Of a stretch of 30,131 nucleotides of DNA, positions 24,039-30,131 are shown one piece after another (within the stretch, counting starts at the first letter, position 1; each line of letters opens with the position of its first letter). The stretch lies in IMG/VR virus record IMGVR_UViG_2671180884_000022. The stretch is one strand, 5' to 3'. The position numbers were made by a program, and so were the translations under genes. Source of the DNA: a virus. Its lineage: Duplodnaviria; Heunggongvirae; Uroviricota; Caudoviricetes. The notes below the pieces were generated by a model that was given only the letters and a program-made list of their open reading frames with translations, did not search any database and was not told where the DNA came from.

Positions 24039-24325
24039 ATCAGCACATCATCTTCAGGCTCTTCGTCAGCCTCACGCCGGTTCAGCAGACTGAAATCCAG
24101 CGGATGCATATCCGGATCGCTGAAAAACAGGCTGAGCACGGTGTACGTCAGCCCGGAAAAGTGCATATCCAGCAGAACATCATGAAAATAATGGGTACTG
24201 TAAAAGCGGTGCCAGTCGGCATACTCCGTGGATGACATCCCGGCAAGCATGGCGCGCCAGTCGGGTCGCCCCATCTCACGCGCCAGTTTCAGGGCAAAAC
24301 TCAGCTCACCGTCGAACACTTTCCC
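24039..24325 (-). pseudogene. T: phage lambda-like tail assembly protein T, 3'-truncated by the IS
   Basis: The -1 frame after the G GGA AAG slippery heptamer (24319..24325) reads FDGELSFALKLAREMGRPDWRAMLAGMSS…EEPEDDVL, matching lambda gpT, then runs into the IS right end at 24038/24039. Lambda continues …DVLMQKAAG…; here the Met codon is split after AT. Confidence 0.75.
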
Positions 24326-24723
24326 GCAGAAACAGGCTCTGCAGGCCCGGCGTCCTCTGCCTGTTCAGGGGCATCATTCACCACAAACTCATACATACCG
24401 GACAGCCGGTACACCACGTTTTCAGCATGAGAAATTGCCTCTGTGGGCCAGGTGGTAAGCACTTCCTGCTCAATCTGTTTAACGGCTTCATTCATGGAAG
24501 GCTGCTTTGTCTTCTGCGGATGGTTATGCCACAGGGACATAGCCACCACAAAAGCACCGGTTCTGATGGCGTCTTCCACAGTAAACTTCCGGTTGCTGTC
24601 TGACTCCGCCTGTTCTGCCTGCCGTTTCATCAGGGCGAGATGCTCAATACGCTGCAGGGCTGACAGTTCAGAAAGCGTGACGGTCACGCCGTTATGTTCA
24701 AATGATTCGGTTTTCAGGAACAT
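24301..24723 (-). CDS. G: phage lambda-like tail assembly chaperone G
   Basis: 140-aa product MFLKTESFEHNGVTVTLSELSALQRIEHLALMKRQAEQ… recognised as lambda gpG; the slippery site for the G-T fusion is near its 3' end. Confidence 0.9.
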   Translation of the reverse strand: MFLKTESFEHNGVTVTLSELSALQRIEHLALMKRQAEQAESDSNRKFTVEDAIRTGAFVVAMSLWHNHPQKTKQPSMNEAVKQIEQEVLTTWPTEAISHAENVVYRLSGMYEFVVNDAPEQAEDAGPAEPVSAGKCSTVS

Positions 24724-24738
24724 CGCTGACTCTCCGGA

Positions 24739-25479
24739 TTAACTGTCGGTGACAGTGATTTCTGCAACCGCAGCAAGTTCACCATTACCGGATACAACCG
24801 GAATGTTGACCTTACCTGCAGCAACGCCTTTCACGGTGATGGTCATACCACTGACCGACACGGTGGCTTTTGTTTTATCCGCAGACACCGCACGAAAGCT
24901 CTTGTCGGTTACGCCCTCCGGCTGGAAGGCCACGGTCAGCGTGGTGCTCTGCCCTTTCACCACCGAGGTGCTGGCAGGCGTCACGGTCATGCCGGTTGCC
25001 GCTGTTACCGTGCTGCGATCTTCTGCCATCGACGGACGTCCCACATTGGTGACTTTCACCGTGCGGGTGATCACTTCCTTCGCCGTCACCGCCTTACCGA
25101 TACTGCTGACCCAGCCACGGAACACATCGACCGTGCCGTTCGGGAAGCGGATTTTATAGGCACGGGTATCGCCTTCATTAAACCACGCCAGCAGCGCCTG
25201 CTGCCCCTGCTCTCCGGGCATCCACGCCAGCGTGAAGCTGGTATCTCCGGCAGATTTCTGCCCCTGCCCGGTCGCAGTCCAGTCTGCATCTTCATCATCG
25301 AGATAGCTGTCGTCATAGGACTCAGCGGTCAGTTCGCCGGGCGTCAGGTCTTTAACTTTTGCCAGACGCGACCAGTCAACGTCTGAAAGCGGATTCGCAT
25401 AAGGGTCACCGCTCCCCTTATAAACCCACAGGGTGGTCCCGGCACCTTTCACCGGCATTGTAGGATTTGGTACAGGCAT
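24739..25479 (-). CDS. V: phage lambda-like major tail protein V (with C-terminal Ig-like domain)
   Basis: [36 protein letters not shown]… recognised as lambda gpV; the track ORF has 10 extra upstream codons. Confidence 0.88.
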
Positions 25480-25486
25480 AGCGTCC

Positions 25487-25882
25487 TCACATTTCATAGG
25501 TAATGACATAAGTCAGATCGGCTGAACTCCACAGGCCCGCATCATCGTCGCGCCGGTAGTCATAGCCGCTGGCCACCATACTGGTGATCAAATCTGACAG
25601 TGCCGGGATATCGCTCATCACCGGATAAATCCGGGACTCCATCCACGCATCCAGCTCTGAATCCGGCACCTGAGCAGGCAGGAAAACTTCGATATGCAGC
25701 TCCGCCTGCCAGGTATCGCTGTCCAGCTCTTCGCCCGTGTATTCAGCGCCGGTGAGATAAACGGCAACTGCCGGAAAATCCGCCTCATCAAAAACAGCGG
25801 GGCGACCATCAAAAAACGTCGCCCCGGTGTCATGCTTCTCCAGTGCATCCAGTACGGCTGCACGGAGTTCAGTATGTTTCAT
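25487..25882 (-). CDS. U: phage lambda-like tail terminator protein U
   Basis: 131-aa product [52 protein letters not shown]… recognised as lambda gpU. Confidence 0.9.
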
Positions 25883-28296: not shown

Positions 28297-28351
28297 AAAA
28301 AAATCCCGTAAAAAAAGCCGCACAGGCGGCCTTTAGTGATGAAGGGTAAGG

Positions 28352-28684
28352 TTAAACGATGCTGATTGCCGTTCCGGCAAACGCGGTCCGTTTTTTCGTC
28401 TCGTCGCTGGCAGCCTCCGGCCAGAGCACATCCTCATAACGGAACGTGCCGGACTTGTAGTACGTCAGCGTGGTGCTGGTCTGGTCAGCATCAACCGCCA
28501 GAATGCCAACGGCAGCACCGTCGGTGGTGCCATCCCACGCAACCAGCTTACGGGTGGAGGTATCCAGCATCAGCGGGGTCATTGCAGGCGCTTTCGCACT
28601 CAATCCGCCGGGCGCGGTTGCCGTATGTGCCGGGTCACTGTTGCCCAGCGGCTGGTAATGGGTAAAGGTTTCTTTGCTCGTCAT
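28352..28684 (-). CDS. D: phage lambda-like head decoration protein D
   Basis: [43 protein letters not shown]…[10 protein letters not shown] recognised as lambda gpD (110 aa). Confidence 0.93.
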
Positions 28685-28693
28685 AAACATCCC

Positions 28694-29299
28694 TTACACT
28701 GGTGTGTTCAGCAAATCGTTAACGGCATCAGATGCCGGGTTACCTGCAGCCAGCGGTGCCGGTGCCCCCTGCATCAGACGATCCAGCGCAGTGTCACTGC
28801 GCGCCTGTGCACTCTGTGGTGCAGCTGCCAGAATGCGGCGGGCCGTTTCCACGGTCATACCGGGGGTTTCGGCCAGCACGCGTGCCTGTTCTTCACGTCC
28901 GTGAGCCTCCTCACAGTTGAGGATCCCCATAATGCGACTGTTTTCTGCCGCAACCGCTGCGGTGATCTGCGCGTTTACGTCCGGCTGCGCCGCGCTGGCG
29001 TTCTCGCCCTCCGTCACTTGCACCACGCCAGTAACGTCAGCCTGCGAAGCAGTGGCTGAAACAGTTGTTGATTGAGTCTCTTTGGTCATTCGCCCTCCTG
29101 AGAGACGGGATTTACGTGCATCCAGTGCATCACGCATGACGGTGATCGCATCGGTACTGTTAACAAGTTCATCAGCCAGTCCGGCATCAATGGCCTCCTG
29201 ACCGCTGTACACTGCAGCCTCGGTATCCAGCACAGCCTGCACAGACAGGCCGGTATATGCCGACACCTTCTGTGCAAACATCCGGCGGGTTGCATCCAT
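28694..29299 (-). CDS. Nu3: phage lambda-like scaffolding protein Nu3 (in-frame internal start within C)
   Basis: In lambda, Nu3 is the C-terminal 201 codons of the C reading frame starting at an internal Met; the corresponding Met (MDATRRMFAQKVSAY…) is present here 201 codons before the shared stop. Called by analogy only. Confidence 0.55.
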   Translation of the reverse strand: MDATRRMFAQKVSAYTGLSVQAVLDTEAAVYSGQEAIDAGLADELVNSTDAITVMRDALDARKSRLSGGRMTKETQSTTVSATASQADVTGVVQVTEGENASAAQPDVNAQITAAVAAENSRIMGILNCEEAHGREEQARVLAETPGMTVETARRILAAAPQSAQARSDTALDRLMQGAPAPLAAGNPASDAVNDLLNTPV

Positions 29300-30013
29300 C
29301 CGGGACTGCAGTGTTTCCCGGACATCATCCGGTAGATGGCTGTAGGGGTTGCCATCCACCTTATGGCTGCCGCTGTAAATCAGCGTGATTTCCACGCCCT
29401 GTTTCTCCAGCGCAGCGCCGTAATTACTGTGAGCCATCATGACGCCGATGGAGCCTGTCCGGGCGGTCTGCGTGACCAGACGCCGGGAGGCGGCACTGGC
29501 AAGCAGCTGACCTGCGCTGCAGTTCATGTCATTGGCCAGCGCCCATACCGGCTTTATGTCACGCACACGGGCGATGATGTCAGCGCAGTCAAATGCTCCC
29601 GCCACCATTCCGCCCGGTGTGTCCATATCGAGCAGAATGCCGTCCACCATCGGGTCGCTGGCAGCCTGTTGCAGACGGGCGATAATGCCGTTGTAACCGG
29701 TCATCCCCGAGTACGGCTGCAGCGCCCGCGTCCGGCTGACCAGCGTGCCGGACACCGGCAGCACGGCGATGCCGTTCATGACCTGATAACTGCGGGCCTG
29801 TCGTGGTCCGTCATCATCACCGGATAATGCCAGCGTCGCGGGTGCCTCCTGGGCAGTCAGGCTGTCGCCGGACACCGCATCCGTCAGGCGGCTGATCCCA
29901 AGCTGGCCTGCAAGCGCACAAAAGAAAACCCGCGCATAGGCGGGTTCAAGCATCAGCGGCTCATTAAAGGCCATGCTGGCAATATGCGGGAGATTACGCA
30001 GCTCTGCTGTCAC
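28694..30013 (-). CDS. C: phage lambda-like prohead protease / minor capsid protein C (S49 / ClpP-like fold)
   Basis: 439-aa product from a GTG preceded by AGGAGGAG: VTAELRNLPHIASMAFNEPLMLEPAYARVFFCALAGQLG… recognised as lambda gpC. The upstream part of the track ORF (to 30127) is read-through across the B/C overlap, not part of C. Confidence 0.88.
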   Translation of the reverse strand: MTAELRNLPHIASMAFNEPLMLEPAYARVFFCALAGQLGISRLTDAVSGDSLTAQEAPATLALSGDDDGPRQARSYQVMNGIAVLPVSGTLVSRTRALQPYSGMTGYNGIIARLQQAASDPMVDGILLDMDTPGGMVAGAFDCADIIARVRDIKPVWALANDMNCSAGQLLASAASRRLVTQTARTGSIGVMMAHSNYGAALEKQGVEITLIYSGSHKVDGNPYSHLPDDVRETLQSRMDATRRMFAQKVSAYTGLSVQAVLDTEAAVYSGQEAIDAGLADELVNSTDAITVMRDALDARKSRLSGGRMTKETQSTTVSATASQADVTGVVQVTEGENASAAQPDVNAQITAAVAAENSRIMGILNCEEAHGREEQARVLAETPGMTVETARRILAAAPQSAQARSDTALDRLMQGAPAPLAAGNPASDAVNDLLNTPV

Positions 30014-30131
30014 TCTTCTCCTCCTCTGTTGATTGTCGCAGCCCGGATTCAAATGCTGCAGCCGCCCAGGCGGGCGGTTTAAGACCAGCCGCGCGGCGCT
30101 CCATCGTTTCACGGACCTGCTGGGCAAAAAT
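29994..30131 (-). CDS. B: phage lambda-like portal protein B, 3' end only (gene runs off the window end)
   Basis: A second minus-strand frame entering from the window end reads …IFAQQVRETMERRAAGLKPPAWAAAAFESGLRQSTEEEKSDSRAA then stop, overlapping the C start by about 20 nt as in the lambda B/C junction. Coordinates are +/-1. Confidence 0.65.
   Translation of the reverse strand: MFAQQVRETMERRAAGLKPPAWAAAAFESGLRQSTEEEKSDSRAA

Follow-up and report, generated by a model that had tools for sequence, protein, structure and literature searches.

Genes of the lambda-type block

The window analysed here is the whole 30,131 bp stretch of DNA, and corresponds to the entire contig LPWW01000252.1 of the draft assembly GCA_001606935.1. 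The accession numbering implies that this is a fragmented draft of at least 252 contigs. A literature search on the assembly accession returned no paper, and searches on related strain names returned nothing useful.

Positions 24039-30131 carry B', C/Nu3, D, E, FI, FII, Z, U, V, G and T', in lambda order and all on the minus strand. Read from 30131 to 24039, the block aligns in one piece with nt 4300-10395 of phage lambda (J02459), at 97.5% nucleotide identity by megablast with 150 mismatches and 5 gap positions. The lambda proteins are colinear with the block in tblastn searches (88.6-100% amino acid identity) and Pfam confirms every gene assignment, with all families scoring over their cut-offs. 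The lambda identities, colinearity and near-identity proposed in the original prediction are thus upheld. All complete genes from C through G are intact and lack internal stops, and dN/dS for the block relative to lambda is 0.18; these results show purifying selection on the block genes, without decay.

The portal gene (B', 29994-30131) is represented by its last 45 codons and stop, corresponding to B residues 489-533 (100% identity by tblastn). Its truncation is simply the contig end and reflects no biological event. C (28694-30013) encodes the 439 aa S49 prohead protease/scaffold (98.2% amino acid identity to lambda; Pfam Peptidase_S49), with Nu3 in frame within it (28694-29299, 97.0%). The other head genes encode the head decoration protein D (28352-28684, 96.4%; HDPD), the major capsid protein E (27271-28296, 97.7%; Phage_cap_E), the DNA-packaging protein FI (26834-27229, 88.6% with one 1-aa gap; Packaging_FI) and the head-tail joining protein FII (26469-26822, 96.6%; Phage_attach). 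Within the block, FI has diverged furthest from lambda (dN/dS of 0.62). Two intergenic hairpins that had been noted from the letters alone, one between D and E and the other between E and FI, share their stems with the lambda counterparts. The first (28313-28334) has a 9-bp stem and a CUGU loop followed by a run of U, and the second (27251-27268), which is terminator-like, has a 7-bp stem and a UUCG loop. Both are on the minus strand.

Tail functions are represented by the tail completion protein Z (25879-26457, 98.4%; Minor_tail_Z), the tail terminator U (25487-25882, 100%; Phage_tail_U), the major tail tube protein V, with a C-terminal Big_2 domain (24739-25479, 98.8%; Phage_TTP_12 and Big_2), and the tail assembly chaperone G (24301-24723, 96.4%; Phage_TAC_2). 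The slippery heptamer GGGAAAG (24319-24325, minus strand) lies just upstream of the G stop. The T frame opens at this heptamer, as expected for a -1 frameshift from G to GT, and the GT fusion product is truncated by an insertion sequence (IS). T' (24039-24319) retains codons 1-93 of 144 plus 2 nt, and its open reading frame runs through five IS-encoded codons to a stop, extending to 24023. The match of T' to Pfam Phage_tail_T reaches only profile position 62 of 73. The block therefore ends within T at the IS, as had been proposed, and its start at 24039 is the first base past that element.

In gene order, product matches and open frames the block belongs to the Lambdavirus-type head and proximal-tail module, with T interrupted. 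Gene order, the nested C/Nu3 arrangement, the D-E and E-FI hairpins and the G-T slippery site are shared with lambda J02459, whereas the substitutions, the diverged FI allele and the IS-interrupted T set the window apart. The closest free phage is Escherichia phage ev207 (NC_049949.1), which is 99.5% identical at the nucleotide level over the whole block, up to the point of the IS in the window. The exact gpG protein was found in 12,297 blocks and is too common to single out one contig.

The insertion sequence and the hipBA flank

The element that interrupts T is a 1,258-bp IS3-family (IS911-like) IS on the minus strand (22781-24038), with ends TGTAGTGG...CCACTACA. It has the TG...CA termini, imperfect terminal inverted repeats, orfA/orfB -1 frameshift, rve DDE domain and 3-bp target duplication of IS911-like members of the IS3 family. 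The frameshift site of orfA/orfB is an A6G motif at 23700-23706, the Pfam domains identified are HTH_Tnp_1 and rve, and the RefSeq label is 'IS3 family transposase, programmed frameshift'. Copies that are 95.7% identical to this IS are labelled ISEc31 family in RefSeq. ATC occurs on both flanks, and that at 24039-24041 is the target-site duplication.

Across the IS from the lambda block lies the C-terminal (beta-barrel) fragment of an autotransporter pseudogene that is cut by the IS (21296-22780; Pfam Pertactin, AC_1 and Autotransporter), followed by intact hipB (20821-21087) and hipA (19499-20821), all on the minus strand. The chromosome dimer resolution site dif is present at 19400-19427 (minus strand) as an exact 28-bp match to the established dif sequence, with no such match in 100 shuffles. 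As assembled, dif is 4.6 kb from the lambda block. Six KOPS-like motifs, one of them in gene V, occur in the window, and all are directed at dif as assembled.

The hipBA side of the contig yielded neither an att site nor an integrase, nor any further phage DNA. The statement that H through J are missing is thus accurate for this contig, where nothing phage-like follows the IS. The left end of the contig is within gadB, which has a near-identical paralog, gadA, and the right end is in the portal gene.

The prophage in finished relatives

Six finished E. coli genomes, all from clinical STEC isolates, have a full-length lambda-like prophage at the DLP12/ompT site, and the lambda block matches part of it with 100% identity. 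In 2012EL-2448 (NZ_CP027586.1) the prophage occupies about 3.754-3.795 Mb. This genome and the five other finished relatives have the same IS at the same insertion point in T, with 100% nucleotide identity over window positions 22777-30131. Upstream of the block they encode Nu1-A-W-B. On the far side of the IS, 'T-H-M-L-K-I-J-lom-stf-tfa follow directly, with ompT next in 2012EL-2448, whereas the autotransporter fragment and hipBA take that position in the window. Most of the integrase, immunity, Q/lysis, terminase/cos and distal tail genes are present in a 47-kb stretch of 2012EL-2448. Every finished relative that has both the IS-in-T allele and the hipBA-side IS holds the block in a complete prophage.

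The site, DLP12/ompT-nfrA, is that of the cryptic prophage DLP12 of K-12, and the prophage of the relatives includes genes with DLP12 names (quuD, essD, rrrD, rzpD, bor, ybcV, ybcW, nohD), followed by ompT-envY-nfrA. DLP12 has lost its head and tail genes; the prophage of the relatives, in contrast, retains all of them. The original prediction, in which the block was a remnant that marks strain history at a locus otherwise free of prophage, is not supported by this comparison.

About 1.09 Mb from the copy in T, a second, base-identical copy of the IS splits the autotransporter pseudogene beside hipBA. The two copies are inverted relative to each other in five of the six finished relatives, and the IS is a 3-4-copy element. 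Window positions 1-24042 align with the hipBA locus of 2012EL-2448 at 99.98% identity and positions 22777-30131 align with its prophage locus at 100%, and these two alignments share only the IS region. The window is thus the left flank of one IS copy joined to the right flank of the other. Its IS is identical to both 2012EL-2448 copies over all 1,258 bp, and the hipBA-T' junction lies entirely within this perfect repeat. A crossover cannot be placed by SNPs because the copies are identical throughout, and the hybrid target duplications are uninformative regarding recombination between IS copies because both parental insertions have ATC on each side.

Origin of the hipBA-T' junction

We consider that the junction is probably an assembly chimera, i.e., a mis-join through a perfect repeat. 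In that case a full-length lambda-like prophage would occupy the DLP12 site, and the block would be one half of it, with the head and proximal-tail genes B through T', located between the early/lysis genes of this prophage and ompT-envY-nfrA. In this reconstruction the 1,258-bp IS3-family element inserted past T codon 93 with a 3-bp ATC duplication, and the autotransporter pseudogene adjoining hipBA/dif, about 1.09 Mb away, contains an identical IS. The contig would then pass from the hipBA locus into the IS and out into the prophage, a join made in silico rather than, we infer, in vivo. The repeat is perfect and apparently longer than the inserts of the assembly, which makes a mis-join within it the most likely cause. 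On the true chromosome, T'-IS probably continues into 'T-H-M-L-K-I-J-lom-stf-tfa, and hipBA-autotransporter-IS probably continues into the remainder of the autotransporter pseudogene.

Several observations are those expected of a chimera: the junction is inside a perfect repeat, its flanks are at separate loci in the relatives, and no independent assembly supports it. A search of 5,426 complete E. coli genomes found no hipBA-IS-T' junction, and found both parental junctions together in six. Adjacency of the lambda block to hipBA is confined to a single draft contig, the window itself. Among 24 contigs with the T' allele, all that span the IS show a simple insertion, except for the window. A look-up with the 466-aa autotransporter fragment, a query that is not specific for the IS allele, found no lambda neighbours in 24 contigs (the contig of the window is outside those 24). 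Short-read contigs of relatives end at the IS edge. Both ends of the contig also point to an assembler that lacked long-range information. At the right end, among the four closest finished relatives listed, the portal region is present in two places in 2012EL-2448, 2018-166 and STEC2018-553 (one in 2015C-3121), and this repetition is a plausible cause of the break at B'. Since an IS present in 3-4 copies was crossed without long-range information, the contig says nothing about true linkage. Against a mis-join, genuine rearrangements associated with these very IS elements do occur in finished genomes of this lineage. In 2015C-3121 there is an inversion via a second IS in the same autotransporter, and in CP023200.1 there is a deletion from Dam to T' that ends at the IS, with an integrase at the prophage end.

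The main alternative, which we regard as possible but doubtful, is that a segment of about 1.09 Mb was flipped by homologous recombination across its two flanking IS copies, which are identical and inverted. The head half of the prophage would then lie beside hipBA/dif, and the distal-tail half about 1 Mb away, beside the remaining autotransporter. The copies are 100% identical, they have the required orientation in five of the six finished relatives, and the geometry of inverted copies predicts exactly the junction of the window. The rearrangements in 2015C-3121 and CP023200.1 indicate that IS-associated rearrangements are real at these loci. However, the predicted junction is missing from all of the complete genomes and is seen in one contig of a fragmented draft, across a repeat at which other short-read assemblies stop. 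The reciprocal junction (autotransporter middle-IS-'T) was also not among 24 contigs found using the 51-aa 'T open reading frame, a set that does not include the contig of this isolate.

The position of dif bears on this alternative as well. An inversion would place dif and hipBA within 4.6 kb of the head genes and move dif by about 1.09 Mb, resulting in replichores of roughly 1.5 and 3.7 Mb. Strong replichore imbalance is selected against. An inversion might seem to destroy the polarity of KOPS relative to dif, but we rejected this idea, because one endpoint lies 4.6 kb from dif and the motif directions are preserved. As the KOPS-like motifs still converge on dif as assembled, only replichore balance would be expected to suffer. 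There is some chance, tentatively put, that the contig records an intra-replichore inversion in a natural STEC-lineage isolate, with KOPS convergence kept and replichores of those sizes.

A true remnant at hipBA, with H through J and the attachment and immunity genes deleted from the genome at the IS, is very improbable. The lack of phage-like sequence past the IS on this contig is consistent with it, and in CP023200.1 a deletion bounded by the IS has removed the other half of this prophage. However, the hipBA side lacks an att site, an integrase and any further phage DNA, and this flank is the parental IS-interrupted autotransporter, 99.98% identical to that of the relatives. A deletion that joined the two loci would cost about 1 Mb of chromosome and would presumably be lethal. 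The sole truncation is at the IS, an element with an identical copy at another locus, the genes are intact (dN/dS of 0.18) and the block is 100% identical to part of a complete prophage, features not expected of a decaying cryptic remnant.

Contamination by laboratory lambda or a cloning vector, fused to E. coli sequence, has a negligible probability as the source of the lambda DNA. It is suggested by nothing except high similarity to lambda and is refuted by the 150 mismatches and 5 gap positions relative to J02459, an FI just 88.6% identical, the 100% match to prophages in the chromosomes of six clinical STEC isolates and the 99.5% match to the natural phage ev207. The alignment and database searches that could have overturned the gene assignments thus leave them standing.

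Consequences for the prophage and for chromosome organization

We predict from the interrupted gene that the prophage is tail-defective, because the G-T frameshift chaperone loses part of its T domain to the IS, and the truncated gpGT is probably non-functional. The inability of the block to form tails, which had been attributed to the missing distal genes, therefore stands as a predicted defect but has a different cause: its source is the IS in T, not loss of distal tail genes.

The block comes from an ordinary E. coli prophage that is already annotated and is cut by an IS; it makes up half of that prophage and involves no new biology. An apparent remnant at a new locus dissolves on comparison with finished relatives, and the case is a caution that a draft contig running through a multi-copy IS is no evidence of gene neighbourhood. 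The block can still be a recombination substrate for incoming lambdoid phages. If the junction were true, it would represent a natural, large, asymmetric inversion that relocates dif, and would be of moderate value for work on chromosome architecture.

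Gene content of the lambda-like block

On its minus strand, window 24039-30131 contains an unbroken run of ORFs that aligns in a single piece with nt 4300-10395 of lambda (J02459) at 97.5% identity (150 mismatches and 5 gap positions in 6,097 columns), the nucleotide comparison called for by the original prediction of a lambda-like head and proximal-tail remnant. Using the proteins of the lambda annotation as tblastn queries, amino acid identities are 98.2% for C, 97.0% for Nu3, 96.4% for D, 97.7% for E, 96.6% for FII, 98.4% for Z, 100% for U, 98.8% for V and 96.4% for G. Only residues 489-533 of the portal protein B (100%) and residues 1-93 of T are present; the T match is 96.9% identical over 97 residues, the last four of which derive from an insertion sequence (IS). 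The expected lambda family was found above the curated Pfam cut-off for every product of the block. The stems of the D-E (28313-28334) and E-FI (27251-27268) hairpins are the same as in lambda, and GGGAAAG, the G-T slippery heptamer, spans 24319-24325. The predicted gene block is accurate to the base by all of these measures, except that B' is cut merely by the end of the sequence.

No internal stops were found in C through G, and dN/dS relative to lambda is 0.18 (92 synonymous vs 53 non-synonymous differences). The phage genes are intact and under purifying selection, whichever arrangement of the contig holds. FI (26834-27229) is far more diverged than its neighbors (88.6% amino acid identity vs 96-100%; dN/dS of 0.62; one codon indel), and forms a local mosaic patch within an otherwise uniform block. 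Derivation from a cloning vector was rejected, given the mismatches to lambda and the identity of the block to natural prophages in RefSeq. The natural Escherichia phage ev207 is 99.5% identical to the block.

An IS3-family element interrupts T

T is truncated at an IS, as had been proposed. The 1,258-bp element at window 22781-24038 (termini TGTAGTGG...CCACTACA; imperfect terminal inverted repeats) encodes orfA and orfB, whose A6G frameshift site lies at 23700-23706, has HTH_Tnp_1 and rve Pfam domains, and is labeled in RefSeq as an IS3-family transposase with programmed frameshift. It is an ordinary member of this family. ATC lies on each side (22778-22780 and 24039-24041). The insertion follows codon 93 of the 144 codons of T; the truncated ORF (T') stops five IS-encoded codons later, and the match to the Pfam T domain ends at profile position 62 of 73.

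Assembly of the lambda tail tube around the tape measure reportedly needs gpG as well as the frameshifted gpGT (work of Levin, Hendrix and Casjens and of Xu, Hendrix and Duda). The functional lesion is the IS in T, and because lambda requires both proteins, a gpGT that is missing its final 51 residues is predicted to prevent tails from assembling.

Parental loci in finished genomes

The two halves of the window occur at separate places in six complete genomes (2012EL-2448, 2015C-3121, STEC2018-553, 2018-166, STEC435 and S19-141). A 2012EL-2448 prophage matches window 22777-30131 at 100% identity and is located between phage early/lysis genes with DLP12 names (quuD, essD, rrrD, rzpD, bor, nohD) and host ompT-envY-ybcH-nfrA, the full-length counterpart of the DLP12 site of K-12. 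There, T' and the IS are followed directly by the remainder of T ('T), H, M, L, K, I, J, lom, stf and tfa. The 2012EL-2448 hipBA locus, ~1.09 Mb from the prophage, matches window 1-24042 at 99.98% identity; here a second IS copy splits the adjacent autotransporter pseudogene into two halves. The two alignments share only the IS, and the window element and both 2012EL-2448 copies do not differ at any of the 1,258 bp. ATC is the 3-bp target duplication at both independent insertions, in T as well as in the autotransporter; this agreement may reflect target preference or chance. The copies are inverted relative to each other in 2012EL-2448 and, judging by hit strands, in four of the other five finished genomes.

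In the closest finished relative, ydeO (window 11151-11858 region) and a helix-turn-helix gene adjacent to hipA (18685-18900 region) carry pseudogene annotations, as truncated or frameshifted; they are probably pseudogenes in the window too, because the loci are 99.98% identical. At window 16847, near the 5' end of a fimbrial usher gene, there is a 1-nt deletion relative to 2012EL-2448, which could be either a genuine frameshift or an error in sequencing; the predicted product is 871 aa long, vs 883 aa in relatives.

Origin of the junction

The window is one entire contig (LPWW01000252.1, 30,131 bp) of a fragmented draft assembly (GCA_001606935.1); the reverse complement of the contig's T' ORF locus equals window 14023-30131. 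We found no literature on the assembly. The left end (window 1) lies 270 nt inside gadB, which presumably forms a repeat with its near-identical paralog gadA. The right end (30131) falls within the portal gene, at lambda nt 4300; of the four closest finished relatives listed, three have this region in two places. Both ends resemble repeat breaks. The assembler seems to have had no long-range information, yet crossed a perfect repeat of three to four copies.

Along the contig, sequence that lies left of the IS copy at hipBA is followed by the IS and then by sequence that lies right of the prophage copy. Such a junction arises in two ways: in vivo homologous recombination between inverted copies, or an assembler leaving the repeat by the wrong exit. 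Among 24 contigs with the T' allele, all that span the IS, except the window, show simple insertion, and relatives' short-read contigs end at the IS edge. If the IS was crossed uninformed, nothing about linkage can be read from the junction and one falls back on the prior, with none of the six finished relatives inverted at this IS pair. We lean towards an assembly chimera through the perfect repeat.

A genuine ~1.09-Mb inversion by homologous recombination between the inverted copies is the less probable origin, although IS-associated rearrangements do occur at these same elements. In 2015C-3121 (NZ_CP027340.1, 3762636-3781636) the autotransporter pseudogene contains, in its N-terminal portion, a second, different IS3-family element that is joined to mpaA-ycjG-tpx-tyrR rather than lsrK. 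This arrangement indicates a real inversion spanning dif and hipBA, which are thereby turned around with respect to the prophage. This genome also has a deletion in its fimbrial operon. In finished CP023200.1 (577714-597869), the IS found in the window meets 'T at the identical boundary, and the gene before it is that of the prophage Dam methylase (Dam-IS-'T-H), with a deletion from the Q region through T', the mirror image of the remnant originally proposed. Polarity would also tolerate an inversion. An exact 28-bp dif match lies at window 19400-19427, 72 bp from the hipA stop, and all six KOPS-like GGGNAGGG motifs are oriented toward it (plus strand: 7327, 11083, 12784 and 19277; minus strand: 22389 and 25262), one of them within gene V. 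Because one endpoint is 4.6 kb from dif, dif would be carried along and polarity would stay convergent; only the balance of the replichores would be expected to suffer (~1.5 vs 3.7 Mb). Against an inversion, none of 5,426 complete genomes has the junction.

A true deletion remnant at hipBA is highly improbable, requiring either the loss of about 1 Mb by deletion or that the block exist in another, independent copy, and the chance of laboratory contamination is negligible.

The block corresponds to prophage sequence that is already annotated, with identical RefSeq records, and contains nothing new in kind. A real inversion is the sole reading of potential interest.
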